This document shows, piece after piece, positions 3,328-60,577 of a stretch of 64,000 bases of DNA. A program made the translations under genes and the position numbers. Under the pieces are notes generated by a model. The model was not told the DNA's origin. It did no database searches and saw only the letters and a list, made by a program, of their open reading frames with translations. The first letter of the stretch is position 1. Each line of letters opens with the position of its first letter. The stretch comes from Patescibacteria group bacterium (GTDB taxonomy: Bacteria; Patescibacteriota; Patescibacteriia; UBA9934; GWF2-40-263). The stretch is taken from assembly GCA_041661745.1 (NCBI GenBank), contig JBAZTR010000002.1, positions 132,368-196,367 on the forward strand, written 5' to 3'.

Positions 3328-3419
3328 AGCTTAGCTTGGCCCACCATTGAGAGTTTCCCGCCTTTGGCGGGACCCCGCCGAGGCCACCGAAGGCGGGGCG
3401 AGTCTCTCCTCGCCCACCA
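3328..3419 (+). repeat. tRNA-associated GC-rich double-hairpin element followed by a 20-nt duplicate of the tRNA-Leu 3' end
   Basis: TCCCGCCTTTGGCGGGACCCCGCC..GGCGGGGC at 3356-3398. Exact copy of GAGTCTCTCCTCGCCCACCA (tRNA 3308-3327) at 3400-3419. Confidence 0.75.
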
Positions 3420-20042: not shown

Positions 20043-20264
20043 ATATTATTTTGTTGCGCCTAGCGAAGCTGGCAATTTTTCCAGCTGCCCCGCCGACGGT
20101 GGCCTTTGGCGGGGTCCCGCCAAAACGAAGTGACGGCGGGAAGCTATGGGCGCATATTATTTTGTTGCGCCTAGCGAAGCTGGCAATTTTTCCAGCTGCC
20201 CCGCCGGCGGTGGCCTTTGGCGGGGTCCCGCCAAAACGAAGTGACGGCGGGAAGCTATGGGCGC
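20043..20264 (-). repeat. Two tandem 111-bp units, each made of a tRNA-associated GC-hairpin element plus a 12-nt copy of the tRNA-Arg 5' end
   Basis: AGCTATGGGCGC (reverse complement of the tRNA 5' end GCGCCCATAGCT) recurs at 20031, 20142 and 20253. The units differ by a single A/G. Confidence 0.85.
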
Positions 20265-23007: not shown

Positions 23008-23118
23008 CCCTCTCCTCTTATCCTCCCCCGTCGTGGCGACGAGGGAGGAAGATTAGAATTTTTTAAAAATTAGTTCTCCCTCTCTCGCTGCCACAGCGGG
23101 GGAGGGCTGGGGTGGGGG
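23008..23118. repeat. Pair of pyrimidine/purine perfect-stem palindromes (CCTCCCCCGTCG..CGACGAGGGAGG and CTCCCTCTCTCGCTG..CAGCGGGGGAGGG)
   Basis: Read directly in the 23004-23120 intergenic region. Confidence 0.6.
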
Positions 23119-29868: not shown

Positions 29869-29947
29869 CGGGCCGTAGCTTCCCGCCTTTGGCGGGACCC
29901 CGCCAGAGGCGGGGCAGTAGTTTTTCTTCGCTACGGCTGATAAATGT
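29869..29947 (+). repeat. 12-nt duplicate of the tRNA-Pro 5' end (CGGGCCGTAGCT) plus a 67-nt GC double-hairpin element
   Basis: TCCCGCCTTTGGCGGGACCCCGCCAGAGGCGGGGCAG..CTTCGCTACGGCTGATAAATGT directly precedes the intact tRNA. Confidence 0.85.
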
Positions 29948-46692: not shown

Positions 46693-46702
46693 TTGAAAAG
46701 TT

Positions 46703-47371
46703 ATGTCCTTCTTTGTCCGAAATTTGAAACAGGAGGAAGGCCTTGGCGAAAAAATTCGCGCCTTGCGCAAACACAAAAACATCACTTTAAACGAAGTGGT
46801 GAGTATTACCAAAATCCAAAAAAAACATCTTGAGGCTTTCGAGTCCGGCCGATACGATCAATTGCCTGAACCAATTTACGCCAAAAATTTTCTGCGAAAA
46901 TATATTCAGGCTCTAGGCGGTGACCCTAATTATTTTGTCACCCGTTTTGAGGAAGAGACAAAAAAATGTGATCTACTCACCCCACACCGTCTGCCAGTTC
47001 AACGCACTCGAGCCGCGGCTTTGTTTGCCTCGCATCGTTTGTGGAAACTTTTAGTTGGTTTATGTTTTGTTGGAGCGATTATTTTCTACCTGGGCTGGCA
47101 AGTTAATGCTTTAATGGCCCTGCCGGAAATAACTGTTTTCGAACCATTGGACGGCATCGAGGTTACCAAGGCAACCATTACTGTCAAAGGAAAAGTTGAT
47201 CGTGAGGCAGAAATATTTGTAAACAACGATGCCGTTGTCTCAGACATTGACGGAAATTTCAGCACAGAAGTAACGCTTGAGCGAGGTTTAAACATAATCA
47301 CGATCGAGGCGAATACCAGACATTCCAAAAAAGCCGCGGTTTATCGAAAGGTTGTGTTAAAACAAGAATAA
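46703..47371 (+). CDS. RodZ-like XRE-HTH membrane protein
   Basis: N-terminal HTH (LGEKIRALRKHKNITLNEVVSITKI), TM segment, and C-terminal beta-rich domain. Confidence 0.55.
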   Translation: MSFFVRNLKQEEGLGEKIRALRKHKNITLNEVVSITKIQKKHLEAFESGRYDQLPEPIYAKNFLRKYIQALGGDPNYFVTRFEEETKKCDLLTPHRLPVQRTRAAALFASHRLWKLLVGLCFVGAIIFYLGWQVNALMALPEITVFEPLDGIEVTKATITVKGKVDREAEIFVNNDAVVSDIDGNFSTEVTLERGLNIITIEANTRHSKKAAVYRKVVLKQE

Positions 47372-47476
47372 ATATTTATCCACATCGCCCTGAAAATTGG
47401 GCGATTTTGTTTATTGCCTTTTCTTCCTTTCACCTTTAAGATGGAAGGGCTACTGAGAAAACGGGTGGGTATTTTT

Positions 47477-47545
47477 GAGGGCGTTAAGGCCTTAAGGCCG
47501 GGCTCCCTCATTTCCTCAACGCCTAAACGCCTTAGCGCCCCCCCC
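47477..47545. repeat. GC-rich palindromic intergenic repeat, family GGGCG(T/C)TAAGG / CCTTA(A/G)CGCCC (copy R1)
   Basis: GAGGGCGTTAAGGCCTTAAGGCCGGGC..CAACGCCTAAACGCCTTAGCGCCCC. Confidence 0.7.
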
Positions 47546-47582
47546 CACAATTTAACCCCCTCTATCCACCCCAACAAAAAAT

Positions 47583-48629
47583 ATGCCTAAACATGTTATC
47601 GAAGAGCCGACGGGTAAATCCCAGGCGGCCACTGAAGCCATTGCCCAAATTCGCCAACGTTTTGGTGAAGGTTCCATTATGAAACTCGGCGAAGCCAAAA
47701 CCATGAAGGTCGATGCTGTAACCACCGGTTGTTTGTCGCTCGACATCGCTCTTGGCGTTGGCGGGGTGCCGCGCGGGCGCATTATCGAAATCTTTGGACC
47801 GGAATCGTCCGGTAAAACCACTTTGGCCCAACACATTGTGGCCGAAGTGCAAAAAGCCGGCGGCGTGGCCGCCTTCGTTGATGCCGAACACGCCCTGGAT
47901 CCTGATTATGCCCAAAAAATCGGCGTCAATATCAACGACCTGCTAATTTCACAGCCTGATAACGGCGAACAAGCTTTAGAAATTGTCGAAACCTTGGTTC
48001 GCTCAAACGGCGTTGATGTTGTGGTAGTTGACTCGGTCGCTGCTCTCACGCCAAAAGCCGAAATCGAAGGCGACATGGGTGACCAGCACATGGGTTTGCA
48101 GGCTCGTCTCATGAGCCAGGCCTTGCGTAAACTCGCGGCCATTGTCGGCAAAACCCACACCATTGTTATTTTCATCAACCAAATCAGAATGAAGATTGGC
48201 GTCTTTTTCGGCAATCCGGAAACCACCACTGGCGGCAATGCTTTAAAATTCTATTCCTCCATGCGCATCGAAATTCGTCGTTCAGCGCAAATCAAACAAG
48301 GCGAAAGAATTATTGGCAACCGCACCCGCGTTAAGGTGGTTAAAAATAAAATGGCTCCGCCTTTCCGCACTTGTGAGTTCGACATTCTTTATAACGAAGG
48401 TATTTCCATTGCCGGTGACATCCTTGATGTTGGTGTGCCGAGCGGGGTTGTTAAAAAGAGCGGCAACTCATACATGTTTAACGAAGAGAAGTTGGGTGTC
48501 GGTCGCGAAGTTGTTAAACAATATCTGCGCGAACATCCCGAAACCATGGCGGCCATTCGCAAAGTGATTACTGACAAAATGGAAGCCGGCGAATTGGAGA
48601 TGGAGGCGTCCGAAGGCGAAGGGGAATAA
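47583..48629 (+). CDS. recA: Recombinase RecA
   Basis: GPESSGKTT Walker A. Conserved L1/L2 regions. 348 aa. Confidence 0.95.
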
Positions 48630-48640
48630 AGTCATAAACA

Positions 48641-48672
48641 AAAAACCAACCGGACAAACGGTTGGTTTTTAA
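48641..48672 (+). terminator. Rho-independent terminator (AAAAACCAACCGGACAAACGGTTGGTTTTTA)
   Basis: Perfect 9-bp stem plus T-run. An identical copy lies at 49319-49350. Confidence 0.7.
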
Positions 48673-48728
48673 TTCCTTTACGGTTAACCTTCAAAATTGT
48701 ATATTAAGACTGGCTTAAAACAACCAAT

Positions 48729-49316
48729 ATGGAAGAAAATCTAAAACCAATCGCCAATTTCTTATTTGAAACCGGCATGCTACAAAAAACACCACGTAGC
48801 GGTTTTTTCTTTTTAGGTAGTGGCAACCAGTCAGTGGCCGAACATATTAACCGCGTTTCATATGCCGGTTTCACTTTAGCTAAAATGAATGGCCAAGCTG
48901 ATCTAAATAAAATTCTCCAGATGTGCATGTTCCACGATCTTTCCGAGGCCCGAGTTTCCGACCTGAATTATGTTCACCAAAAATACAATGAGCGTTTGGA
49001 AACCAAAGCTGTGGAAGATTTAGCTAATACTCTACCTTTTGGTGATGACATGAAGAAGATAATCGATGAATACGAAGCTAGAGAAACCATCGAAGCCAAA
49101 TTAACAAAAGACGCTGACAACATTGAACTTCTGTTATCACTAAAAGAACAATCAGACATTGGTAACGACCGTGCTGATACTTGGATCCAACCATTACTTG
49201 GTCGTCTACTAACAGAAGAAGGAAAACAACTGGCTCAAGTAATTCTTAATACCGATTCTGATCAATGGTGGTACGGAAACAAAGATGACAAGTGGTGGAT
49301 TAATAGAGATAAGTAA
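48729..49316 (+). CDS. HD-domain phosphohydrolase (YfbR-like 5'-deoxynucleotidase)
   Basis: H..HD..E motifs (EHINRVSYAG, MFHDLSEARVSD). Confidence 0.65.
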   Translation: MEENLKPIANFLFETGMLQKTPRSGFFFLGSGNQSVAEHINRVSYAGFTLAKMNGQADLNKILQMCMFHDLSEARVSDLNYVHQKYNERLETKAVEDLANTLPFGDDMKKIIDEYEARETIEAKLTKDADNIELLLSLKEQSDIGNDRADTWIQPLLGRLLTEEGKQLAQVILNTDSDQWWYGNKDDKWWINRDK

Positions 49317-49318
49317 TC

Positions 49319-49350
49319 AAAAAACCAACCGGACAAACGGTTGGTTTTTA
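49319..49350 (+). terminator. Rho-independent terminator, exact duplicate of the recA terminator
   Basis: AAAAACCAACCGGACAAACGGTTGGTTTTTA. Confidence 0.7.
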
Positions 49351-49400
49351 AATTTTCCAAAGCCTCTCAAGCCTTTCCCGCCTTTCCAGCATCTCAAGCG

Positions 49401-49967
49401 TTAGTTATTCACCCTTTCCGAATATTCCCCATTATCCGTGCTGACCAAAACTTCTTCGTTTTCTTTTAAAAAGATCGGCACGCGAATTTTCATTCCATTA
49501 TCAAGGGTCGCTTCTTTAGTAACATTGCCTGAGGCGGTATCACCTTTAACAGCCGGTTCGGTGGAAACAACTTTGTACTGAATTTTCATTGGCAGGTTAA
49601 TGGTGAGTGGGGTTTCGCCGTGCATAATGATCATCACTTCCAAACCTTCTTTCAGAAACTTGGCGTCATCACCGACATCATCAACCCCGAGCTGTACTTG
49701 CTCGTAAGTCTGATTATCCATGAAGGTGTAGAAAGTTCCGTCGCCGTATAAGTACTGCATTTTTTTGTATTGTACTTCCTCAAATTCCAGTGATTCGGCT
49801 GACTTGAAATTTTGTTCGACGATTTTTCCGGTTTTGATGTTTTTGGCGCGGGTGCGCACAAAAGAACTACCTTTGCCCGGCGAAACGCGTTGGAAATAGA
49901 CGACTACCCACAACTCGCCGTTTAGCCGAAGCACGGTGCCTTTTTTGATATCATTTGGTGATGACAT
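49401..49967 (-). CDS. efp: Elongation factor P
   Basis: IKKGTVLRLNGELWVV..SPGKGSSFVRTRAKN with the conserved KPG-loop region. Confidence 0.9.
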   Translation of the reverse strand: MSSPNDIKKGTVLRLNGELWVVVYFQRVSPGKGSSFVRTRAKNIKTGKIVEQNFKSAESLEFEEVQYKKMQYLYGDGTFYTFMDNQTYEQVQLGVDDVGDDAKFLKEGLEVMIIMHGETPLTINLPMKIQYKVVSTEPAVKGDTASGNVTKEATLDNGMKIRVPIFLKENEEVLVSTDNGEYSERVNN

Positions 49968-49970
49968 AAT

Positions 49971-50210
49971 TTATCTTTGAATGAACGGAAGAAGGGCCAT
50001 GATACGAGCACGCTTGATGGCGTCGGCCAAGACCCGTTGGTGTTTGGCGCAAACGCCGCTGCGATGACGCGGCACGATTTTAGCGAAGGACGAAGTAAAG
50101 CGTCGCAAAAACTGCGAGTCTTTATAATCGATTTCGATTTTTTTATTAACGCAAAACGGACAATGGCGTTGTTTGGCGTTATTATTTTTCTTATTGTTAT
50201 TATCTTTCAT
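49971..50210 (-). CDS. rpsR: 30S ribosomal protein S18
   Basis: CPFC..IDYKD..LRRF..GKI.PRR.TG.CAK.QR.L motif. Confidence 0.85.
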   Translation of the reverse strand: MKDNNNKKNNNAKQRHCPFCVNKKIEIDYKDSQFLRRFTSSFAKIVPRHRSGVCAKHQRVLADAIKRARIMALLPFIQR

Positions 50211-50223
50211 AAATTGTCATTCT

Positions 50224-50658
50224 TTAAAAAGGAATATCTTCAACCTTGATTTCCGTGGTCGGATCGATTGACGGATCATCTGGCAATGAAGTCGCGGCCG
50301 GAGCAAAGCTGCCGCCACCGGCACTGCCGGCGCGATCAAGAATAATGGCATTCTCGGCCACCACTTCGGTGCGATAACGCTTAACACCATCCTGACCCTC
50401 CCAGTCACGGGTTTGCAAACGACCTTCAATATAAACTTTTTTACCTTTGGCTAAATACTGTCCAAGAATTTCCGCGAGCTTGCCCCAAGCCACGATGTTA
50501 TGGAATTCTGCTTTATCCTGTTTAACTCCATTGGCATCGGTCCAGTTGCGATTGGTGGCCACACCAAAAGTGCAGACACTTTGGCCAGACGGCAATTGTT
50601 TAACTTCCGGATCCCTGGTGACGTTACCAAGAATCGTCGCGCGATTGAGTGAAAACAT
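50224..50658 (-). CDS. ssb: Single-stranded DNA-binding protein
   Basis: OB-fold N-terminus (NRATILGNVTRDPEV). C-terminal acidic tip DDIPF. Confidence 0.9.
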   Translation of the reverse strand: MFSLNRATILGNVTRDPEVKQLPSGQSVCTFGVATNRNWTDANGVKQDKAEFHNIVAWGKLAEILGQYLAKGKKVYIEGRLQTRDWEGQDGVKRYRTEVVAENAIILDRAGSAGGGSFAPAATSLPDDPSIDPTTEIKVEDIPF

Positions 50659-50669
50659 ATGTTCGATGA

Positions 50670-51176
50670 TTAAATATTTTCGGAAGTGTTAACATCCAAA
50701 ATTTCATCAAGTTTTTTATCCAAGTCTTCCATGGACAATGGTTTTTCGTCACGCAATACTGGTTCGGTTTCCGTTACTTCGGCTGGTTTAACCGGCGCAG
50801 CTTCGGCCGCGCGATGTGGGCGACGGATTTCCTCTTCCTCTTCCGACAACGGGGCCACATAGGATTCGAGCAGGAACGAACGTTCCGGCACGCCCTTAGG
50901 AAGTTGCACCAACATGTGACGCAAAACCTCCGTGGCTAAACGGAGTTGATTTTCGATTTCGGCGACCACCGAAGTTTCGGCTTCGAGGTAGGCCAAAATA
51001 TATGAACCATGGCGCGTTTGCTTGATAGGATAGGCCAAGCGAATGCGACCAAGATTTTCCTCCTTAACGACTTTGGCTCCGGCCTTTTCGATTAGACCGC
51101 GAACCGTTCCTTGGATCCCCTCAATTTCCGCGTCAGTGAAGCGGGTGGGGATGATGTAAAGTAATTCGTACATCAT
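50670..51176 (-). CDS. rpsF: 30S ribosomal protein S6 with acidic C-terminal extension
   Basis: MYELLYII..RHGSY S6 pattern. Operon order rpsF-ssb-rpsR. Confidence 0.85.
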   Translation of the reverse strand: MMYELLYIIPTRFTDAEIEGIQGTVRGLIEKAGAKVVKEENLGRIRLAYPIKQTRHGSYILAYLEAETSVVAEIENQLRLATEVLRHMLVQLPKGVPERSFLLESYVAPLSEEEEEIRRPHRAAEAAPVKPAEVTETEPVLRDEKPLSMEDLDKKLDEILDVNTSENI

Positions 51177-51416
51177 AGAGTGTCGCCCCGCACCGTACGG
51201 TGCAGGGACTCTGGTTAAATAACGCCCCAGAGTATGGACGACTTAAATTGTAAGTGCCCAGACTTTAATATATTTGGCGGTTTTGGTCAAGACTTATGGC
51301 TTGAGATGCCTTAGGGGCCGGCGAGGCTGGAAAGGCCTCTGTTATCCACTTCTGCCTAATAAGGCTTGTGATAAACTGACTGCGGTTCATTCGTTTTTCA
51401 CGGAAGGAGGCGGGCT

Positions 51417-52070
51417 GTGATTTCTCACTTTTTCGACTCGTGGTCCCGTCAACTGGCCATCAAGCTCGATGCCTGGCTCATTGCCAAAGGATACGTTCCT
51501 GAACGCCAGCAGGTGAGAGATGAAAACGAGCACAATGGCCGGATCATCGTCATCACCGGCGAAATGTTCTCGGGCAAGACCGAAGAGCTGATTCGTCTGG
51601 TCAGGCGCAATGTTTTTGCCAAGGTTTCCTTCGCCACCTTCAAGCCGCGGCGCGACACGCGAGAAAGTGGCCTAGTAAAATGTCGCAACGGTCACCACTT
51701 GGAAGCAATCGAGGTGGGGGATTCCAAGGAAATCCTCCGACACATCGTGGCCCATCCGGAGATCAGAGTCGTCGGCGTCGACGAAGCCCAGTTCTTCGAC
51801 GAAGGAATCGTCGAGGTTCTGCGGACTCTGGCCGACATACGCCACATCACGGTCATCGTGGCCGGCCTGGACATGGATTTCGAAGGCAAACCGTTCGGAC
51901 CAGTGCCCGGCCTCATGGCCATCGCTTCCGAAGTCCGTAAAGTCCACGCCGTCTGTGTCGAGTGTGGTCGTACTGCCGCCTACAGTCGCCGCAAGGTGCC
52001 CGACACCGCGCAGATCGTGGTCGGCTACGATGGCTACGAGGCCGTCTGCCGCGCCCATCGTTCTTTCTAG
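51417..52070 (+). CDS. tdk: Thymidine kinase (GC-rich, GTG start, N-terminal extension)
   Basis: P-loop GEMFSGKTEELIRL. C-terminal zinc ribbon CVECGRTAAYSRR..C..H. GC is much higher than the neighbours. Confidence 0.7.
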   Translation: MISHFFDSWSRQLAIKLDAWLIAKGYVPERQQVRDENEHNGRIIVITGEMFSGKTEELIRLVRRNVFAKVSFATFKPRRDTRESGLVKCRNGHHLEAIEVGDSKEILRHIVAHPEIRVVGVDEAQFFDEGIVEVLRTLADIRHITVIVAGLDMDFEGKPFGPVPGLMAIASEVRKVHAVCVECGRTAAYSRRKVPDTAQIVVGYDGYEAVCRAHRSF

Positions 52071-52121
52071 GTTCCTAGTTCTCTGTCCCGCACCCACTCA
52101 GGGTCGCGGGTTTTTAATAAA

Positions 52122-52511
52122 TTGACAAAGTTACCATGTTCTAGCATCCTTAAAATAGTCACCAACCACCCGATCGGAGAAAAAATGTTCATTCCCGTCA
52201 CAGATCTTCCACCAGAAGCTTACAAGCTCGCCTATATCTTTGTCATTTTTAGTGCGATAGGTTTCTGGTCACACCTCCTGCTCTTTCATGGCAGAAAACG
52301 GAAGCTTATCCAACATCTATTCTTCATGATGTTTATACTTGGCGTGATTACTGGGCTTGAGGTATTAAGCCGTACAAACTATATAACCGGCTTAGACGGT
52401 GCAATATCTTTTACTGCCTCCGTTTGCCTGATTTCTGGTTGGTTTACCAGTGTAATGTACGACCTTGTTGAAAAAAAATGGTGGGAACCACAAAATCCGA
52501 CCAAGAACTAG
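52122..52511 (+). CDS. Hypothetical membrane protein
   Basis: Several hydrophobic segments. The true start is possibly at MFIPV (52185). Confidence 0.35.
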   Translation: MTKLPCSSILKIVTNHPIGEKMFIPVTDLPPEAYKLAYIFVIFSAIGFWSHLLLFHGRKRKLIQHLFFMMFILGVITGLEVLSRTNYITGLDGAISFTASVCLISGWFTSVMYDLVEKKWWEPQNPTKN

Positions 52512-52611
52512 TTTCGGTCGGTCAAACTCCCCGAGCCCGACATGCGACTCGGATTTTTATTTTGCGACACATTGTGATATTATCGGGGGGATAAATATGA
52601 TTAATCGGCGT

Positions 52612-52669
52612 CAGGGCGCTAAGGCGTTTAGGCCTTAGGGGCATAACCTTAAAGCCCTTTAACGCCCGG
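52612..52669. repeat. GC-rich palindromic intergenic repeat (copy R2), abutting the methyltransferase start codon
   Basis: CAGGGCGCTAAGGCGTTTAGGCCTTAGGGG..CCTTAAAGCCCTTTAACGCCCGG. Shares the 20-mer GGGCGCTAAGGCGTTTAGGC with the reverse complement of R1. Confidence 0.7.
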
Positions 52670-53995
52670 ATGCCGACCATCCAAACCAATCCCCAAAATA
52701 TGACATTTTTTGTACTCGGTTCTCACCCGGCCCTTTCGGTCGCAGAAATTGCGAACGTGCTTGGTGTGGAAATAAACCACTCACAATATTCAAAAGAAAT
52801 TTTATTGCTCGATGAAATCGGCACTTCACCCGAAGCCCTGCAAGGTCGTTTGGGTGGTACGATTAAAATCGGCGACATTGTCGGCGAAGTGAACCCCCCT
52901 TCGCCGGGCTTCGGCGGGGCAAGAAAAATTGATAAGGAAGAGGTCGCTGATCTTTTTGTTTCGCTTCTCGCCCACCCCTCACCCCTGCCCCTCTCCCTGA
53001 GGGAGAGGGGGGAGGAGGAGAGGGGTAACCGTGTTGTTTTCGGCATCAGCACCTATTCACTCGATGCCCACCGCGATCTTTCGACTGAAGTCAAACAAAT
53101 TGGCATGACCATAAAAACCAAGTTAAAAGAAGAAGGCCGAACCGCTCGTTTTGTTTCGACCAAAACTGCCGCCCTGCCAAGCGCGGCGGTGACCGGCGAA
53201 AAGCTTCTGGAAAACGGAGCTGAATTTGTAATCATTGTCTCTAAAGAAAAAATATACCTTGGTCAAACCCGCATTGTGCAGGATTTTCAAAGCTGGTCAG
53301 CCCGTGACTACGGTCGACCGCGTCGCGATGCCAAGTCCGGCATGTTGCCGCCAAAACTCGCGCGCATGATGATTAATTTGTCCGGCGCCAAAACCTCGGC
53401 TGCTTTGCTCGATCCGTTTTGTGGCTCGGGCACAGTGCTTATGGAAGCGGCGCTAATGGAATTTACCAATCTTATCGGCAGTGATATTTCCGAAAAAGCC
53501 ATTAAGGACACAACAATAAATTTAGATTGGTTAAATCAAAACGAAGAAGTTGATACTTCCGGAATTCGTCTTTTTAATAAACCAATCGAAACCCTGGCCG
53601 GAGACTTAAAAGAAAAAGTTGAGGTGATTGTCGGTGAAACCTATCTCGGTCCACCGCTCTCGGGTCGCGAAACACCGTTTCGACAAAAACAAATCATGGA
53701 CGAGCTGCTTGAACGCACCGCTTCCGGCCTGGCCGCCTTACTTCAACTTCTTAAAAAAGGTGGAACCGTGGTTTTGGCTCTCCCGGCTTTCTGTGCCCGC
53801 CATAGCCCGGCGACGGCGGGTCAGAATGGAAAAAATATTCAATATCTACCAACCAAAAAACTGGCCGAGGCCGTTGGTTTACAAATTGTTCCCTTCACCG
53901 GCGAACCAAACGAGGTTTCGCCTAATGGTGGGCTACTGTATGTTCGTGAAAATCAAAAAGTGGGAAGAGAAATTGTGAAAATGGTTCTTAAATAA
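52670..53995 (+). CDS. THUMP-type class I SAM-dependent RNA methyltransferase (RlmL/Trm11-like) with an in-frame palindromic insertion
   Basis: Motif I LLDPFCGSGTVLMEAA preceded by MLPPKLARMMINLSG. Low-complexity insert HPSPLPLSLRERGEEERGNR encoded by the palindrome at 52988-53010. Confidence 0.55.
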   Translation: MPTIQTNPQNMTFFVLGSHPALSVAEIANVLGVEINHSQYSKEILLLDEIGTSPEALQGRLGGTIKIGDIVGEVNPPSPGFGGARKIDKEEVADLFVSLLAHPSPLPLSLRERGEEERGNRVVFGISTYSLDAHRDLSTEVKQIGMTIKTKLKEEGRTARFVSTKTAALPSAAVTGEKLLENGAEFVIIVSKEKIYLGQTRIVQDFQSWSARDYGRPRRDAKSGMLPPKLARMMINLSGAKTSAALLDPFCGSGTVLMEAALMEFTNLIGSDISEKAIKDTTINLDWLNQNEEVDTSGIRLFNKPIETLAGDLKEKVEVIVGETYLGPPLSGRETPFRQKQIMDELLERTASGLAALLQLLKKGGTVVLALPAFCARHSPATAGQNGKNIQYLPTKKLAEAVGLQIVPFTGEPNEVSPNGGLLYVRENQKVGREIVKMVLK

Positions 53996-54023
53996 ATACC
54001 AAAGGGATTCTTGAATTTAGACG

Positions 54024-54112
54024 GCACTCGGGCCTTAAGGGGCGTTAAGGTTTTGTCTGGGCTTGGATAAAAATTCCATGCCCTAGTGCCCTAAAACGCC
54101 TTAACGCCCGAC
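54024..54112. repeat. GC-rich palindromic intergenic repeat (copy R3)
   Basis: CGGGCCTTAAGGGGCGTTAAGG..GCCCTAAAACGCCTTAACGCCCG. The arms are exact reverse complements (GGGCGTTAAGG / CCTTAACGCCC). Confidence 0.7.
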
Positions 54113-54180
54113 CGTGTCCGTCATAGCTCGCCTCGAGCGACGGCGGAATGCCACCTAGCCACCGCGATTCCAAAAACACT

Positions 54181-55101
54181 ATGCCAACTCAAATCGATAA
54201 ACTCTTAACTGACTTCCTTGAATATCTCGAAGTCGAACGCGGTCGCTCGGCCCGGACGATTAGAAATTACGATTTTTATTTGCGCCGGTTTATTAAATGG
54301 GCACGCCACCCTTCGCCGGCCGGCATTACCGATGATTTGATTCGCAAATTTCGCCTGTGGCTTAATCGTGCTGTGCCCGGACGACTTGATTCCACCATAA
54401 AAAAGAACACACAAAATTATCACCTTATTGCCTTGCGAGCTTTTCTTAAATACTTGGCTCGTCGCGATATAAAATCCATGTCCCCGGAAAAAATCGAGTT
54501 GGCTAAAGCCCCCTCGCGCATTGTTGCTTTTTTAGAAGCCGATGAATTGGATCGTGTTTTACAAATTCCCCTAGCCGCCGGCGAAGATTTAATCGGCTTG
54601 CGCGACAAAGCCATTTTGGAAATGCTTTTTTCGACCGGCCTACGCGTGTCCGAATTGGCTAATTTAAAAATCGATCAGGTAAATTTGAAACGCGACGAAT
54701 TCACTGTCCGCGGCAAAGGCGACAAACCGCGCGTTGTTTTTTTATCCGACTCGGCCAAAGAGTGGTTAAAAAAATATTTAAACAAACGCCACGATACTTC
54801 GCCTTACATGTTCATTTGCCACGACCGTGCCAAACGCGGCCGTGAGGATTCCGGTCCAATTACTCCGCGTTCAATCGAACGGATGGTTGAGTATTGTGCC
54901 AAAGCCGCCGGGGTCACCAAACGCATTACCCCGCACACCTTGCGCCACACTTTTGCCACTGACCTTTTAATGAACGGTGCCGATATTCGTTCAGTTCAAT
55001 CGCTCCTCGGCCACGCTTCCATCACCACCACCCAGGTGTATACTCATATTACGAATAAACAGCTAAAAGAAGTGCATAAAAAATTTCACGATAAGAAATA
55101 A
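54181..55101 (+). CDS. Tyrosine site-specific recombinase XerC/XerD
   Basis: HTLRHTFATDLLMNGADIRSVQSLLGHASITTTQVYTH catalytic box (R, H-x-x-R, Y). Confidence 0.85.
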   Translation: MPTQIDKLLTDFLEYLEVERGRSARTIRNYDFYLRRFIKWARHPSPAGITDDLIRKFRLWLNRAVPGRLDSTIKKNTQNYHLIALRAFLKYLARRDIKSMSPEKIELAKAPSRIVAFLEADELDRVLQIPLAAGEDLIGLRDKAILEMLFSTGLRVSELANLKIDQVNLKRDEFTVRGKGDKPRVVFLSDSAKEWLKKYLNKRHDTSPYMFICHDRAKRGREDSGPITPRSIERMVEYCAKAAGVTKRITPHTLRHTFATDLLMNGADIRSVQSLLGHASITTTQVYTHITNKQLKEVHKKFHDKK

Positions 55102-55104
55102 AAT

Positions 55105-57465
55105 ATGCGTACCATAGAAAAATCAGAAGCACCTCCGGTCAAAGACACTCGGGAACCGAAAAATTCAAGCGAAATTATTAATGAAATTTTTCAGTACCTG
55201 GAAGAAAGAGAATTGATTGAGAGAAAACCGGATGGTGTACTTATCGTAGATAGCCAACTTTTATCCCGGTACGATGTCAGAGACGCTTTATTTCGAAAAC
55301 TCAACGGCCGGTTAGGTAAAACAAGGGCCGAGCAAATAGGCAACTTATTTCTAGAAGAAAAAGTTGTTATAAATTATTCAGAAGATGAAGTCGTCCCAAT
55401 CGGCAGCCAGAAACCAGAGCCACTTTTTTATTCACCTAAATCAAAAGAGGACGCCTTTGATTTAGAAAAAATCAAAGGCGCTAATTTTCATTTTGGCCTC
55501 TGGGAAGATTACAAGGGCTTTGTCGACAAAAACGGAAACACTGTCGAACAGCCGGGGGCAACAGATGGTTTATCTTTAATTGAGGCTTCGCTAGCCTGTC
55601 TTATTTTTCATCCTAAATTTGGTAATGGCCACCGCAACGAAAAGGGACAACTGGTTGTTCGGAGACCTAATGGACAAGAAACGGTTTTTTCGTCCAATTG
55701 GCTGAAGGAATGGCCCGGCATGCATACCAGAGTCAATGAAAAAAACAGTCGACCGTTGTTTGAATATTTTTTTACCAACAGTCAAACCATGGCCGCCAAC
55801 CTGCTAGAACAAGGTTTGCTTAATCGAGCTGATTTTGCCCGAACCAAAGAAGTAAGGACTTCGGAAACACGAGTTAGTAGTAATGGTATGGTTTCGATTG
55901 ATTCGGTCAAACACTACTTGGGTCGGCAGTATGCCGGAACCAGAGTTGAACCGCTTGGTGAAATATTAGCAGTGATTAGAGCCGACGAATCGGGAAACGA
56001 AACCTTAGTCGCCACAAGTCGACAGCTTAAAAAAGGTGATGTTGGCCTGGTCCAAAGAAAAACGGCCACCGGAACCTTTCTCGAAGCTCCGGTTGATCTA
56101 TGCCAACCAATACCTTTCGACCCAAAAAAACCGCACACCCTAGACGATTCCGCGGATATAGAAAAAAAAATTGAACAAGCCAAAGTCCTTAATGGCTTGC
56201 AAATGAAATTGGATTTTGATAATCACTTAAATCGCTCCGGATCCGAAGCCAGACTCAGCCTTCTTCCGTCTTTTTTGCAAAAGAAAATCCAAAAAAATAT
56301 TGCCAATCTGCCAACAATTTTTTCGCCTGGTTTAAAACTAAGTGAAGAAGACGGTCAGGACGGTTTAGAAATTTTTGCCATGACTATCGACCAACCGATT
56401 TTATTTTTACAAACTTTTTATTCACTTAAGGATTTGTCTGAAAGTGAACGTCTCAAGGCCCAGGAAACAATAAAAGAACTTTGCCACTTAAGACTGGCTG
56501 TACAGCATCTTTCTAGGAACCTCGGCAAAAAAGATTCAGAAAAAATTGGTGAAATGGTTAATGAAAGTTTAGTTAAAAGAGAAGAAGGCGGATTGGAAAA
56601 ACTCCGAACAGCTGTGGTTTCTGAACTGGCCACGGTTTTGGGAGCTGAATCATTACGGGTTGAACTACAAAATGCCGCGGAAACCGGCGAGGCTTATTTA
56701 AAATCAGTTTTTGAAGATCTATTGCGAGTCATGAGTCCGGAAACACCTAATAATGTCAAAACCAGTCTTAGAAAGTTATATAAAGAAATTAAATTTGAAC
56801 AATACAAACTCAACGAGTTATCGCAACAAAGAGATGAAAACTTTTTGAGGAAAAACTTGCAACTGGGTAGTCGTGTCGCCGACTTAGGTGCCGGCACCGG
56901 ACGCCTTTCCCAGCCATTGTCCGAAGCGGGAATTAAGGTAACTGCCGTTGACAATGTTCAACGCCACGTAGATTTAATGCGCCGAAAATTTCCAAAAGTT
57001 GAAGTTGTAAATGCTGATTGGACCAGAACCGGATTGCCAAATGAAAGTCAGGAAACCGTTTTCTCTTTGGGCCGTTCGATTCTTCACGAATTTACTTTGG
57101 CTAGACAAAATGCTTTGTTTCGCGAGGCCAACCGCATTCTTCAAGATGGTGGAAAATTTATTATCGATATTCCCGATCGCACCAAAGGCAACTACGCCCA
57201 TTTGGTTGAAAGCTACCGAGCCGCCATGGCCGAAAGAAACATTCCGGTTCGAGAGGGTTTAATTTACGACAGCCCCGATGGTCAAAACTTTTTTACAAGA
57301 TACGCTTATTCCCTGGAAGACATTAGGCACTTGGCCGAAGACAACGGTTTCCAAATTGAGACAACTGAAACCGCCCAGGTTGAAACAGGAGAAGGTGACG
57401 AAAACATTTATATTGTTATGAAGAAGGTTGGGCAACCAAAGGAGCAACTTCCTCTGGCGGCATAA
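55105..57465 (+). CDS. Large hypothetical protein with C-terminal class I SAM-dependent methyltransferase domain
   Basis: 786 aa. C-terminal VADLGAGTGRLSQPL motif I and IIDIPD motif. The N-terminal 550 aa are uncharacterised. Confidence 0.6.
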   Translation: MRTIEKSEAPPVKDTREPKNSSEIINEIFQYLEERELIERKPDGVLIVDSQLLSRYDVRDALFRKLNGRLGKTRAEQIGNLFLEEKVVINYSEDEVVPIGSQKPEPLFYSPKSKEDAFDLEKIKGANFHFGLWEDYKGFVDKNGNTVEQPGATDGLSLIEASLACLIFHPKFGNGHRNEKGQLVVRRPNGQETVFSSNWLKEWPGMHTRVNEKNSRPLFEYFFTNSQTMAANLLEQGLLNRADFARTKEVRTSETRVSSNGMVSIDSVKHYLGRQYAGTRVEPLGEILAVIRADESGNETLVATSRQLKKGDVGLVQRKTATGTFLEAPVDLCQPIPFDPKKPHTLDDSADIEKKIEQAKVLNGLQMKLDFDNHLNRSGSEARLSLLPSFLQKKIQKNIANLPTIFSPGLKLSEEDGQDGLEIFAMTIDQPILFLQTFYSLKDLSESERLKAQETIKELCHLRLAVQHLSRNLGKKDSEKIGEMVNESLVKREEGGLEKLRTAVVSELATVLGAESLRVELQNAAETGEAYLKSVFEDLLRVMSPETPNNVKTSLRKLYKEIKFEQYKLNELSQQRDENFLRKNLQLGSRVADLGAGTGRLSQPLSEAGIKVTAVDNVQRHVDLMRRKFPKVEVVNADWTRTGLPNESQETVFSLGRSILHEFTLARQNALFREANRILQDGGKFIIDIPDRTKGNYAHLVESYRAAMAERNIPVREGLIYDSPDGQNFFTRYAYSLEDIRHLAEDNGFQIETTETAQVETGEGDENIYIVMKKVGQPKEQLPLAA

Positions 57466-58228
57466 CTATTCCCTTTGAAGATAAAATAAACTTTATTGCC
57501 GAACGCAAAGTTGCGGCCAAAGAAGAGCTTTCAATAATCGTTCCGATAAGCTCTTCTTTTTTGTAACTGATAAAAGCCACCTTGTCACCAAAAACATCAA
57601 TCTCACCATGAAAATCATAAAGGTCGTGATCGACCGTGGCCACGGAACGCATTTGTTCTTTACTACTTTTAACGTAACTTTCAATATTCTTTTCACCAGA
57701 AGCCACAACATAAGCGTAAATACCCTTTTCAGCCCTGGCCGAACCGTAAGTTTTGGAAAGCCAACGGAAAATCTCCGGAGCCGGGTCATCGGGCCCAACC
57801 AGAGCAAAAATTGTCTTTTTGTCTTCCAGTGTTTCCCGATAGATTTCTTTCAGACTATCAATTCCTTCGAACATTCTAACTGTCGGACGCTTGGTAACCA
57901 GGTTGTATTGAGACTTAAGGGTTGGTAACGCTGCCGATAACTGGTTTAAAAGGTCATGACTGGCGGCCACCTTGGCCTGGGCAAGCCTACGCAAAGTCTC
58001 GGGATCAGCCGCTTTAAACACGGTTTTGGCCCCGGACTCCTCAAAAATTAGCCCCTTTTTCTTTAAAGAAGCCATTACATTATATAGGTTGCCACGGCCT
58101 AAACCCGAAGGAACCAGTAAATCCTGGGCCGGTTTTGGCCCTAATTCCAATAAAAGCTCATAAACCAGGGCCTCGGAATCATTTATTCCCAGTTGGGAAA
58201 GGATTGGGTAATGGACTTCGTGAATCAT
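57416..58228 (-). CDS. TrmB-like HTH transcriptional regulator
   Basis: Start at MIHEVHYPILSQLGINDSEALVYELLLELGP (winged helix of the TrmB family). The upstream extension to 58372 runs into a repeat and is unlikely to be coding. Confidence 0.55.
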   Translation of the reverse strand: MIHEVHYPILSQLGINDSEALVYELLLELGPKPAQDLLVPSGLGRGNLYNVMASLKKKGLIFEESGAKTVFKAADPETLRRLAQAKVAASHDLLNQLSAALPTLKSQYNLVTKRPTVRMFEGIDSLKEIYRETLEDKKTIFALVGPDDPAPEIFRWLSKTYGSARAEKGIYAYVVASGEKNIESYVKSSKEQMRSVATVDHDLYDFHGEIDVFGDKVAFISYKKEELIGTIIESSSLAATLRSAIKFILSSKGIVMPPEEVAPLVAQPSS

Positions 58229-58230
58229 AG

Positions 58231-58325
58231 AAAAGGGAGGGAAAGGGTTGGAAAGAGAGTGGAAGAGAGGGAAAGTTTTTCTTACTTTCCTTCCCTTTAA
58301 TCCCCTTTCCTTCTCTTTCATTCTT
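58231..58325. repeat. Inverted arrays of degenerate GGAAAG hexamers (purine arm / pyrimidine arm)
   Basis: GGGAGGGAAAGGGTTGGAAAGAGAGTGGAAGAGAGGGAAAG .. TTTCCTTCCCTTTAATCCCCTTTCCTTCTCTTTC. Confidence 0.6.
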
Positions 58326-58430
58326 TTACAAATACAGTATAACATCAAAATGCCATATTGTAAATGACACAAAGTGGATAACTATCTTGGCTTAAATTGG
58401 CCTAAATATGTAATATCTGCCACTAAAGTC

Positions 58431-58459
58431 TTGACAAGTTTCCTCTTTTATGATACTAT
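58431..58459 (+). promoter_or_regulatory. sigma70-like promoter (TTGACA, 17-nt spacer, TACTAT) in a gene-free region
   Basis: Consensus -35 with good spacing. No ORF follows. Confidence 0.5.
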
Positions 58460-58465
58460 AGTGTC

Positions 58466-58668
58466 ATCAAGATGAGGTACAGGGAAGCGAAGACCAGTAC
58501 TTCACCAGATCTTTAAAAAATAACGAGCGAGAGAGCCCTAGTCCAGGGTTAAATGGACATCTACTGAACAAGTAGTCTCCCCTATCCTTATATAGGGGGG
58601 CGAAAGAACAGTGGAAAAGACAGGTTTGTGTATCTTTCTCAAATAAGAACATAAACCTGTCTTTTTCT
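58466..58668 (+). ncRNA. Candidate small RNA of about 200 nt (unknown family), bounded by a promoter and an intrinsic terminator
   Basis: Promoter at 58431-58459. Internal hairpins (CCCCTATCCTTATATAGGGGG). Terminator AGACAGGTTT..AAACCTGTCTTTTT at 58618-58668. No ORF longer than 14 codons. Confidence 0.4.
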
Positions 58669-58974
58669 TTAAGACTCTGTCCTGGCCAGACTTGCCAGGA
58701 ATTAACTTGGATGAAAAGGAGATAAACACGCTATCGGTTGAGTCCAACTCAATGGATTCCCGAGGAGATACGGCGAGAGAGATTATCACCCTTTCAACTA
58801 AGCCAAACTTCTTAACGAGTGCGCAGTGGCCTAATTCCCTACGGGTTGAGTTGGACCACCTGCAGTCTTTAAGAAGACTATGAGGTTCTGCAAGAGGTGT
58901 TGGAACCATCTTCTGCCGGATGAACTTTCACAATTGAATATTCATCAAAAAAACTGACCGATACTTCGGGGGCA

Positions 58975-59017
58975 ATTCGTAATTCGTATATTCGTACGAA
59001 TTCGTAATTTCGTCCCC
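58975..59017 (+). repeat. Array of five TTCGTA hexamers with an embedded palindrome ATTCGTACGAAT
   Basis: AATTCGTAATTCGTATATTCGTACGAATTCGTAATTTCGT. Confidence 0.6.
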
Positions 59018-59215
59018 TCTCTGGAACAAGCCGATTTCGGATACTCGACCTTTAACCAGCCATGCTTGGATTAAAGATCATCGAGCCCGAGACTCAGGAC
59101 GTTCTGGAAGATTCGGTCTTCTTAACGAGGAGGGTTCTTCTTCCTCGGTTCGAATAAGTTCTTAACCCCTCTCCCCAACCCTCCCCCAAGGTGGGAGGGA
59201 GATCTAACTTGAGAA

Positions 59216-59396
59216 CTTTGAGAAAAATATGATTTACCAAATTACCTACATCGCTTCGGCGATCGGAACACTTGGGTTCATGCTCGGATTGAGCTAACCC
59301 AAAAAGCACGAGAGAAAAATCTCACGCGTGCTTCATGATTTATAACCTCACCCCACCCTCTCCTTAGTAAGGAGAGGGAGTTACAGATCACGAAGC
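59216..59396 (+). repeat. 180-bp leader repeat, copy A: mini-ORF + hairpins
   Basis: About 90% identical to 60578-60760. Contains the 22-aa ORF at 59229-59297, an imperfect hairpin AGCACGAGAG..CTCACGCGTGCT, and a perfect hairpin CCCTCTCCTTAGTAAGGAGAGGG. Confidence 0.85.
59229..59297 (+). CDS. 22-aa hydrophobic mini-ORF (MIYQITYIASAIGTLGFMLGLS), leader peptide or type-I-toxin-like
   Basis: Conserved in both copies of the leader repeat (paralog MIYYFVYVASAIGTLGVLLGLS). The differences are largely conservative hydrophobic substitutions. Confidence 0.4.
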   Translation: MIYQITYIASAIGTLGFMLGLS

Positions 59397-59466
59397 ATTC
59401 GAGGAGATCCACCTTCGCCGAGCTTCGGCGGACAAGGAGTCCACGATTGCGAATCCTGTCCATGTT

Positions 59467-59498
59467 GGACGGGTCCGGCAGGCATGCCGTCCTTTTTT
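59467..59498 (+). terminator. Intrinsic terminator / attenuator immediately upstream of the ribosome-binding site and ATG of the first GC-rich gene
   Basis: GGACGGGTCCGGCAGGCATGCCGTCC hairpin, then TTTTTT, then GGAGGAAAACATG. Confidence 0.55.
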
Positions 59499-59508
59499 GG
59501 AGGAAAAC

Positions 59509-60372
59509 ATGCGCTTCGTCATCAGCAGCAATCCCGTCGTCCTCGCCGCCGCCCTGCAGGACAAGCCGTCCGCAACGGTCGAGGCCGAGTACGGCAACGC
59601 CGTGGTCGAGGGCTCTGTCCTCACCATGGCGCACCACGGCCCCCGCGCCGGCCAGCCCGCGCCCTGTGCCTACGAGAACGGCTGCGCCGACGGGGTCGAG
59701 GTGGTGGGCCTGTCCCACTTCGATCTCGACACCCTCGGCGGGTGCGCGGCCATCCTCGGCCGCAAGGTCGAGGCCCCGACCTTCTGGCAGCTCGCCGAGT
59801 TCATCGACCTCAACGGGGCTCACAAGCTCAACGAGGGGATCGAGAAGACCGGCGCGACGCCCGACGACGTGGCCAAGCTCTTCGCCTTCTGGGCGTGGTC
59901 GCGCAACTTCCGCGTCTTCCCGAACCGCGACGGCAGCGTCAGCGACGTCACCGACAAGGTCATCGAGGGCTGCAACGTCCTCGACAAGATCATGAACGGC
60001 GATGCCGACCTGATGAAGGCCGGAACGGTCTACAAGGACGCGGAAGGGAAACTCAACGCCGACTCGTTCGTGGAGGCGAAGGACGGCGTGGTGGTGCGGG
60101 TCTCGTCCCAGTTCACCAACCACCTGTACAACACCCCCGACGGGAAGGCCCACGCCGCGGTCGTGGCCTACACCACGACGACCGGCGCAGTCACGGTCAG
60201 CTTCGCGGACTCCCCCAAGGGCAAGAACGCCCGCCAGATCGTGCAGGAGCTCTGGGGTGAGCTCGCCGGTGGCCACGCCGGAATCGCCGGCAGCCCCCGC
60301 GACCGTCGCATGTCCCTCATCGACCTCACCGCGGCGGTCGAGGCCCTCCGCGCCGCGCTCGCCGGCAAGTAG
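59509..60372 (+). CDS. Hypothetical protein (about 68% GC, foreign composition)
   Basis: ORF 59497..60372 with ATG at 59509 behind a GGAGG ribosome-binding site. Strong GC3 bias. No motif recognised. Confidence 0.55.
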   Translation: MRFVISSNPVVLAAALQDKPSATVEAEYGNAVVEGSVLTMAHHGPRAGQPAPCAYENGCADGVEVVGLSHFDLDTLGGCAAILGRKVEAPTFWQLAEFIDLNGAHKLNEGIEKTGATPDDVAKLFAFWAWSRNFRVFPNRDGSVSDVTDKVIEGCNVLDKIMNGDADLMKAGTVYKDAEGKLNADSFVEAKDGVVVRVSSQFTNHLYNTPDGKAHAAVVAYTTTTGAVTVSFADSPKGKNARQIVQELWGELAGGHAGIAGSPRDRRMSLIDLTAAVEALRAALAGK

Positions 60373-60577
60373 TCACATAGGTTTCTTTCCCAATTTCTTC
60401 TCCTTAGGGCGAAAAAAGTAAATTGGCCATGTGTGCTTTCGAACTCGAGCACGCGTGGAACCGTAGAGTTCAAAAGGAAAGTCGTCTCCCTTTAAGTAGA
60501 CGGCAAAAACAATGCACTCGATTGGCGGATTCACTCCCCGCCTCTTCGACTAAACTCTTGAATTTTCTTTCGAGGGC

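Follow-up and report, generated by a model that had tools for sequence, protein, structure and literature searches.

The earlier note on this 64-kb stretch of DNA (the window, in what follows) pointed to a G/C-rich palindrome lying in frame in a methyltransferase gene. We consider it likely that this palindrome is the core of a solo repeat of about 51 nt belonging to the BoxC/PIT/TMECO family, that the repeat is the terminal hairpin of a mini-element built around a DUF559 gene, and that the host protein tolerates it as a loop. The in-frame setting, the Patescibacteria host and the association with DUF559 are new; the repeat family itself is known. Coordinates are collected in Table 1.

The core hairpin has a left arm made purely of pyrimidines and a right arm made purely of purines, separated by a single central G. 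The earlier note had its sequence and position right, but not its length, as the arms measure 11 nt around the G and not 10 bp. Two other claims about it held: the region lies in frame in the methyltransferase open reading frame (ORF, 52700/52670..53995), where it encodes the peptide AHPSPLPLSLRERGEEERGNR, and the extensions CCCACCCCTCACCCC and GGGGAGGAGGAGAGGGG flank the palindrome and pair with each other to give an imperfect hairpin of about 22 bp. Folding of the 67-nt stretch gave -42.5 kcal/mol for RNA (z -2.7) and -24.8 kcal/mol for the minus-strand DNA (z -3.8). The left end of the whole repeat was set at 52976 by the breakpoint against a contig bearing a DUF559 gene (contig B, see below), and the locus with the solo repeat is 45 nt longer than the empty allele. 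Since the second purine arm also pairs with part of the left arm, the window copy is a two-sided, 'palindromic' triplex motif. The pattern CCCTCTCC-N(0-12)-GGAGAGGG matched twice in the window and never in 100 shuffles, a relaxed TMECO three-block pattern matched once against none in 100 shuffles, and pyrimidine/purine hairpins with a third arm were found at four loci in the 64 kb against 0.34 expected. A chance origin of the palindrome is excluded. The G-rich strand also shows the run GGG-AGA-GGGG-CA-GGGG-TGA-GGGG-T-GGG, a potential G-quadruplex. An Rfam search at gathering thresholds returned only rRNA, RNase P and tRNAs, with no match at the palindrome locus.

Few short repeats in bacteria are as widespread as the BoxC/PIT/triplex motifs. 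Earlier work on BoxC and PIT reportedly includes that of Bachellier in the 1990s and of Hoyne and Maher in 2000, and we know of no accepted origin or function after some three decades, local genome instability being the main proposal. On the minus strand, 52976-53009 of the window reads CCCTCTCCC-TCA-GGGAGAGGG-GCAG-GGGTGAGGG and fits the three-block TMECO pattern, CCCTCNCCC N3-6 GGGNGAGGG N3 GGGNGAGGG (Holder et al. 2015, PMC4666352). It departs from the pattern only in the second loop, which has 4 nt where the pattern has 3; alternatively, the stems can be read as 10 nt with a 2-nt loop. Judged by its sequence, the palindrome appears to be a copy of this known 'intrastrand triplex motif' family, in which BoxC was rediscovered as the 'potential intrastrand triplex' (PIT) element and then as TMECO (PMC4666352). 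It shares with the family the C-rich stem, its G-rich complement and the second G-rich block (CCCTCNCCC / GGGNGAGGG / GGGNGAGGG), near-identical stems, the multi-copy occurrence, the variation between relatives and the existence of two-sided 'palindromic' forms. It differs in its position in frame in a gene, in the Patescibacteria host, in the second loop, and in that a sister contig of the window links the repeat physically to a DUF559 gene.

The TMECO motif occurs 3,610 times across 262 proteobacterial genomes, is 'always located intergenically' in E. coli K-12, and showed neither promoter nor terminator activity (PMC4666352). Its triplex forms in vitro from single strands and was undetected in vivo, and the motif has been tied to local instability and small indels (PMC4666352). 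The in-frame, coding copy of the window departs from the intergenic location, which is a typical and not a structural feature of the family. Presence/absence and small-indel variation among close relatives was seen at the window locus and its orthologues.

The composite CCTCACCCC-N-CCCTCTCC-loop-GGAGAGGG, with 25 specified bases, is common to the window copy and to an intergenic copy at 59346. We found it at no fewer than 120 loci with unrelated flanks in species-representative genomes, where by our own estimate well under a handful of matches are expected by chance. The loci belong to Proteobacteria, Bacteroidota, Chloroflexota, Planctomycetota, Cyanobacteria, Acidobacteria, Verrucomicrobia, Actinobacteria and others. 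The composite is also present in at least 120 viral contigs, again with unrelated flanks; one of the IMG/VR contigs (L131-L250), IMGVR_UViG_3300020057_000061, has 13 copies. E. coli genomes carry the repeat at a median of 5 places, and the K-12 hrpB-mrcB spacer holds two units. In this spacer (L127) the two BoxC units are inverted and separated by 17 nt, and together resemble a gene-less cassette. Several of the 148 motif copies in the cross-phylum loci lie within long ORFs, and the Pfam-confirmed genes spanning a motif encode a CN-hydrolase (nitrilase-family), a type I restriction HsdR, an alanyl-tRNA synthetase and a radical-SAM protein. More copies are present in the related loci L002 and L003.

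The host protein has 431 aa in the NCBI call, or 441 aa when started from the upstream ATG at 52670 (JGI/Logan call). It is 100% identical to a protein of an NCBI 'Patescibacteria group bacterium' metagenome-assembled genome (MAG), and its relatives are labelled Uhrbacteria or Trm11; the host genome is a Patescibacteria, Uhrbacteria-like one. Pfam recognised UPF0020/N6_N4_Mtase (RMKL-type) from about residue 208. An AlphaFold2 model built with 23 homologues reached a pLDDT of 88.6 and a pTM of 0.90, and its best Foldseek matches were the archaeal Trm11 tRNA m2G10 methyltransferases 5e71 and 6zxw (E 2e-21). The palindrome insert corresponds to residues 91-113 of 431, which the model places in a loop within the N-terminal module, between a helix (79-89) and a strand (111-120). 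The earlier note had put it between the THUMP-like and methyltransferase parts, which is not where it lies. Blocks of low pLDDT in the model (61-80, 91-110 and 361-380) coincide with three in-frame inserts. The ORF is intact and all family-invariant residues are kept. The best reading of the model is that the palindrome insert is tolerated as a disordered surface loop, and it is probably without function for the enzyme.

That the palindrome region is extra was claimed before, and alignments with orthologues bear it out. We compared 23 homologues, made a codon alignment of the six closest and surveyed 120 homologues; orthologue DNA was obtained by exact-protein look-ups, and a metagenome scan with a single protein query gave 2 loci. 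The window gene has three in-frame extras, NPPSPGFGGA (30 nt), the palindrome region and CARHSPATAG (30 nt), so that two inserts come in addition to the one noticed earlier. The segment from LL to FGIS has 7-10 residues in 106 of the 120 homologues and more than 10 in 14; it has 23 in the window, compared with 8 in the closest orthologue P0002 and in P0005. An apparent empty allele was recovered from a co-occurring strain. Contig A (ENA sample ERZ27249449) is 100% identical to window 46670-52962 and continues as VSLL-AASEGRAV-FGIS, 45 nt shorter than the window and with 95.5% identity onward. The window allele itself was found in an independent Logan contig (run SRR18595301), identical over 5,623 nt. 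Between the empty and filled alleles no clear target-site duplication was seen, and substitutions within 10 nt of the site blur the junction. By these sequence comparisons, the palindrome region is extra DNA relative to the empty allele and the orthologues.

A further contig of the same ENA sample connects the repeat with DUF559. From its position 371, contig B (L262) is 100.000% identical to window 52976-64000 (11,025 nt), and the identity breakpoint is the first base of the CCCTCACCCC arm. Immediately left of this point it carries, on the opposite strand, a DUF559 gene in place of the 5' part of the methyltransferase. The DUF559 frame stays open through the motif (..PSPSGRGAGVR-VTIPLARALRRSQTDAERKLW..FRRQ..VELDGGQH..). 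The protein matches PF04480, its closest solved structure is 3HRL (DUF559 of N. gonorrhoeae, E 4e-28), and its nearest relatives, 72-73% identical, come from Elusimicrobia and a betaproteobacterium; in a database look-up the exact protein was found on contig B only. This allele breaks the methyltransferase frame, and what is called of the gene is a fragment of 296 residues. A search for DUF559 motifs in the window and seven orthologous loci found none, so the window copy is solo. Hairpins on both sides of a DUF559 ORF are thus missing from the window, and contig B shows one end, where a DUF559 ORF begins at the third arm of the motif. From contigs A and B and the window, the locus therefore appears in three states: empty, with the solo repeat in frame, and with the repeat and DUF559.

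The association with DUF559 is also found elsewhere, and DUF559 genes were flanked by hairpins of this type at all loci we looked at. At three of the cross-phylum loci, an inverted motif pair brackets a DUF559 domain of about 110-130 residues. DUF559 is read through in frame in a methionyl-tRNA synthetase of a betaproteobacterium (L023 2111-2649, residues 671-780, E 1e-32) and in a leucyl-tRNA synthetase of a member of Cytophagales (L041 6629-7083, residues 350-454), and in Hymenobacter (L076 3763-4288) it follows a PurQ-like gene, to whose end it is fused. Seen from the gene, one hairpin lies just upstream of DUF559 and another just downstream. All seven DUF559 signatures in 1.9 Mb of motif-selected loci are 115-262 bp from a motif (six in 831 kb of genomic loci, one in 1.05 Mb of viral contigs).

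As these loci had been selected by the motif, the test was reversed to start from DUF559. A tblastn search with a DUF559 protein against plasmids gave 37 records, from which ten diverse loci were fetched. Pyrimidine/purine hairpins adjoin the DUF559 ORF in nine of the ten (0.78 expected), and the tenth has 5-bp-stem variants. At least six have hairpins on both sides, with stem sequences that depend on the lineage. In addition, motif-encoded tails such as PHPxPLPxxGEG stand at the C-terminus of at least 66 of 120 DUF559 homologues. The E. coli DUF559 gene ycjD (L130, K-12 1351000-1351800) has a degenerate hairpin where its stop codon lies; a BoxC unit comes about 170 bp after the gene, and in the interval the 3' end of ycjD is repeated as a fragment. 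DUF559 cassettes were also seen in or beside DUF1156 (DNA methylase-like) genes on a Synechocystis sp. B12 plasmid (L253, 34885-36196) and on pAQ6 of Picosynechococcus PCC 7002 (L258); in L253 the flanking annotated ORFs look like halves of one interrupted gene. DUF559 shares the Vsr nuclease fold, as do EDxHD homing endonucleases (I-Bth0305I; PMC3239194). We found no literature linking the BoxC/PIT/TMECO repeat to DUF559, in a search of open-access papers only that does not prove novelty, and nothing relevant on palindromic in-frame insertions in Patescibacteria.

Regarding the mechanism, DUF559 and its flanking hairpins may form a minimal selfish unit with DUF559 as the only gene, for which we infer mobility and endonuclease activity. 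Alternatively, the repeat may be a preferred landing site, with DUF559 genes homing to hairpins. The solo state in the window could mean that the endonuclease gene has been lost or that the copy is non-autonomous, and solo motifs and gene-less inverted pairs, such as that of the E. coli hrpB-mrcB spacer, would be derivatives of the DUF559 unit. In-frame copies would survive where their length, frame and loop location are harmless. The repeat unit has a stop codon in just one of its three sense frames, and the window copy would persist because its length is a multiple of three, the frame used has no stop, and a disordered loop of Pro/Ser/Leu followed by Arg/Glu/Gly spares the fold. A broader proposal is that BoxC/PIT repeats in general are the terminal hairpins, mostly solo or gene-less derivatives, of unrecognised pan-bacterial selfish elements with DUF559 as their only gene, which also reside in essential genes and viral DNA; we regard it as just as apt to be wrong as right. 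Such elements may sit in frame in methionyl- and leucyl-tRNA synthetases and in the Trm11-like gene without an intron or intein, and the window palindrome would be a solo end in a population that still holds empty and endonuclease-bearing alleles.

Several observations weigh against the DUF559 origin of the window repeat. There is no DUF559 gene in the window or in the NCBI MAG record with the exact host protein, and only about 5% of motif copies have DUF559 nearby, so most copies are solo. In E. coli, TMECO showed no link with mobile elements, phages or plasmids (PMC4666352). Contig B ends 38 nt past the DUF559 gene, which leaves the left junction outside the assembly, and the adjacency of repeat and DUF559 in it is possibly an assembler join between loci or strains. 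The identity of contig A drops from 100% to 95.5% right at the insertion site, and contig A may therefore be a strain mosaic and not a simple empty allele. Finally, the differing hairpins of orthologues at the same site could reflect repeated insertion or turnover in situ.

Much of this is what the main rival explanation builds on. It holds that the BoxC copy arose and spread without an endonuclease, through slippage, template switching or error-prone repair at unstable non-B DNA, with contig B being an assembly join or DUF559 merely inserting beside motifs. The instability and small indels reported by Holder et al. without mobile-element association in E. coli (PMC4666352), the roughly 95% of copies without DUF559 nearby, the short end of contig B and the variants of net +18 to +54 nt at the same site in orthologues would all agree with it. 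However, slippage leaves the cross-phylum 25-base composite unexplained, and in unrelated phyla hairpins consistently abut DUF559 ORFs directly at either end. An assembler join would need an identical repeat beside a DUF559 gene in the same community; the final graph of contig B was built with k = 141, well above the repeat of about 51 nt, and contigs A and B share the stretch right of the site, overlapping the way a genuine branch in the assembly graph would. We think this explanation unlikely, though more credible than those that follow. One of these is that the hairpin is kept as useful, either as an mRNA or DNA structure slowing translation between folding units or as an unstable on/off switch. 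The stability of the RNA fold, the modelled site between structural elements, the polymorphic locus with a DUF559 allele that breaks the reading frame, and a paired T>C / A>G change between the window and the orthologue P0003 that keeps the stem speak for such a role. The hairpin is nevertheless missing from most homologues, from the closest orthologue and from the co-occurring strain, the family, orientation and size of the inserts vary at this one site, and the motifs showed no promoter or terminator activity in previous studies; a useful hairpin seems improbable.

Two readings remain. According to the one raised in the earlier note itself, a native low-complexity linker drifted into a palindrome. 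The site is indeed the most length-variable of the N-terminal module in the close clade, and the 14 homologues with longer linkers would fit. The orthologues and the empty allele, with its near-identical flanks, have no equivalent linker, and therefore the observation that was to overturn the insertion was not made; most homologues keep the short linker, the 25 specified bases match across phyla and the window holds other copies. This reading is already largely refuted, and we give it very little weight. An assembly or sequencing artefact might be suspected in a window taken from a metagenome-assembled genome, since G/C-rich hairpins invite errors, but three assemblies (the contig shared by NCBI and JGI, the Logan contig of SRR18595301, and contig B of the ENA sample) agree exactly in the sequence, the insert preserves the reading frame, and independent orthologues from other samples carry related inserts. 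For practical purposes an artefact is refuted.

The earlier note likened the palindrome to Rickettsia palindromic elements (RPEs), and the analogy stands as far as the in-frame palindromic insertion is concerned; the repeat is not an RPE, its family being apparently BoxC/PIT/TMECO. RPEs are about 100-150 bp long and are not known outside Rickettsia and close relatives. Like them, the window repeat is a palindrome in frame in a gene that adds a surface peptide to an apparently intact host protein and has non-coding copies too. We rejected RPE membership on size (about 51 nt, net +45) and on the Patescibacteria host, and set the two apart on these grounds without comparing RPE sequences. The window unit moreover is spread over many phyla and can be paired with a candidate partner gene, whereas we know of no enzyme associated with RPEs. 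Mobile GC clusters of yeast mitochondria and bacterial miniature inverted-repeat transposable elements (MITEs; Correia/NEMIS) are likewise short G/C-rich hairpin repeats in A+T-richer genomes that can sit in coding regions. Their sequences and hosts are unrelated to ours, and no clear target-site duplication, such as MITEs have, was seen at the blurred junction here.

Membership in the repetitive extragenic palindromic (REP) sequences with their associated tyrosine transposases (RAYT) was rejected because the window repeat lacks a GTAG or CGTC tag, in an analysis that made no search for RAYT genes. The resemblance to REP/REPIN-RAYT systems, which include the GTAG-tagged REPs of PMC3733652, lies in short G/C-rich multi-copy palindromes, a single partner gene flanked by its own repeats and mostly solo, non-autonomous copies. 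The partners differ, since DUF559 has a Vsr/PD-(D/E)XK fold and RAYT is a Y1 transposase of the IS200/IS605 type. With homing endonuclease genes (Vsr-fold EDxHD, I-Bth0305I, PMC3239194) and inteins the DUF559 units share a small nuclease gene at a defined site in conserved genes and empty and occupied alleles in one population, and the in-frame read-through of DUF559 in the two tRNA synthetases recalls inteins in particular. The DUF559 units differ in having no intron or intein splicing motifs and in ending in hairpin repeats, and any cleavage and homing by them is putative.

The two further inserts of the methyltransferase gene belong to a second family, G/C-rich hairpins of exactly 30 nt with the core CCTTCGCCGRGCTTCGGCGG, of which the window has two in-frame copies and one intergenic copy. 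Inserts 1 and 3 are identical at 22 of 30 positions in opposite orientations, and both are missing from all 119 other homologues (119/119). Insert 1 fits a clean insertion of CCCCCCTTCGCCGGGCTTCGGCGGGGCAAG into GTGAA^AAAAATT. Nested copies, one element inside another, were observed in in-frame inserts of the orthologues P0004 and P0009 (L003 10634-10708; L129 3068-3172). Genes of close relatives have two insertion hotspots, the palindrome linker and a loop after MMINL. At the linker, inserts vary in family and orientation and add net +18 to +54 nt; P0003 has CCCCCACCCC-AA-CCCTCCCCC-TG-GGGGGAGGG, oriented as in the window, and P0004 a member of the triplex-motif family in reverse. The MMINL site holds triplex-type hairpins in P0003 and P0004, a perfect palindrome in frame with a GTAG tag, GTAGGGGCGAATGGCCATTCGCCCCTAC, in P0005 (L004/L128 10640-10672) and, in P0006, a different hairpin ending in CTAC (L005 ~3035-3075); REP-like elements therefore also land in frame in the methyltransferase gene. 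In loci L002 and L003, four of the six triplex-type hairpins sit in this gene. None of the comparable syntenic neighbours (FtsK, HTH protein, RecA, HD hydrolase, EF-P, SSB, S6, TK, XerC, the large methyltransferase and a TrmB-like protein) has window-specific indels of at least 4 residues. Judged against these neighbours, the phenomenon is concentrated in one gene.

The intergenic relatives of the hairpin mentioned in the earlier note were all recovered (Table 1): the one in the first leader cassette, at 59356-59378, is perfect, and those at 60721-60743 in the second and at 23022-23048 have one mismatch each. The cassettes are about 180 bp long and about 90% identical (59230-59410 and 60595-60775). 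In each, a tiny ORF (MIYQITYIASAIGTLGFMLGLS) is followed by a hairpin and the triplex motif, and a gene of a G+C-rich segment lies downstream. Here, in window 59500-64000, the G+C content rises from about 45% to 60-63%, with a junction that is reproduced in two assemblies. Its genes include one for a bpMoxR-type AAA ATPase (62243-63451), after which a VWA protein is encoded beyond the edge of the window, and the segment is either a foreign island or of different origin. A third hairpin family (CCCGCCTTTGGCGGG then ACCCCGCC...GGCGGGG) adjoins the tRNA genes Leu, Arg and Pro and includes, at 20068-20244, a tandem duplication whose period is about 110 bp. Two identical hairpins with 12-bp stems, AAAAACCAACCG-GACAAA-CGGTTGGTTTTT (48641-48670 and 49320-49349), bracket the HD-hydrolase gene and are probably bidirectional terminators.

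Table 1. Coordinates of the repeats, their host gene and other hairpins in the window.
Feature	Position	Strand	Basis	Remarks
Trm11-like tRNA m2G10-type methyltransferase (THUMP-type N-terminal module and Rossmann-fold methyltransferase; predicted)	52700..53995	+	ORF, Pfam, AlphaFold2, Foldseek	
Solo triplex-motif repeat (BoxC/PIT/TMECO-type), in frame	52976..53026		breakpoint, pattern and allele comparisons	
Core hairpin, perfect 11+1+11 pyrimidine/purine palindrome CCCCTCTCCCT-G-AGGGAGAGGGG	52988..53010		palindrome check and folding	
C-rich third arm CCCTCACCCC	52976..52985	+		minus strand GGGGTGAGGG, third block of the purine-motif triplex
Second purine arm GGAGAGGGG	53017..53025	+		also pairs with 52988-52996
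Insert 1, second-family 30-nt hairpin element CCCCCCTTCGCCGGGCTTCGGCGGGGCAAG	52894..52923	+		encodes N-PPSPGFGGA-R
Insert 3, second-family 30-nt element, reverse orientation	53792..53821	-		encodes CARHSPATAG
Second-family intergenic copy	59408..59437	+		core CCTTCGCCGAGCTTCGGCGG
Intergenic triplex-motif copy CCTCACCCC-A-CCCTCTCC-TTAGTAA-GGAGAGGG	59346..59378	+		in duplicated ~180 bp cassette
Intergenic triplex-motif copy of the second cassette	60711..60743	+		one stem mismatch (hairpin 60721-60743)
Triplex-motif variant CCCTCTCCCC-AA-CCCTCCCCC-AAGGT-GGGAGGG	59167..59199	+		similar copy in related L003 at 16658
Two intergenic G/C-rich hairpins	23022..23118	+		23022-23048: CCTCCCCCGTCG-TGG-CGACGAGGGAGG, 12-bp stem, one mismatch; 23076-23118: triplex-type hairpin CTCCCTCTCTCGCTG-CCA-CAGCGGGGGAGGG then GGGGTGGGGG
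Third-family hairpins	3356-3415, 20086-20124, 20197-20235, 29881-29915			

The motif is translatable in frame here and in other phyla and so contributes to variation in protein loops. Patescibacteria, with their reduced genomes, also have it, and there three or more hairpin inserts have accumulated in one gene. The tie to DUF559 and the natural three-state polymorphism at one site make the nature of these repeats testable. If DUF559 recognises, nicks and spreads the repeats, this would give a role to thousands of 'endonuclease domain-containing' genes and to E. coli ycjD, and would also account for many of the Pro/Ser...Gly/Glu/Arg peptides whose insertion in database proteins has been puzzling.

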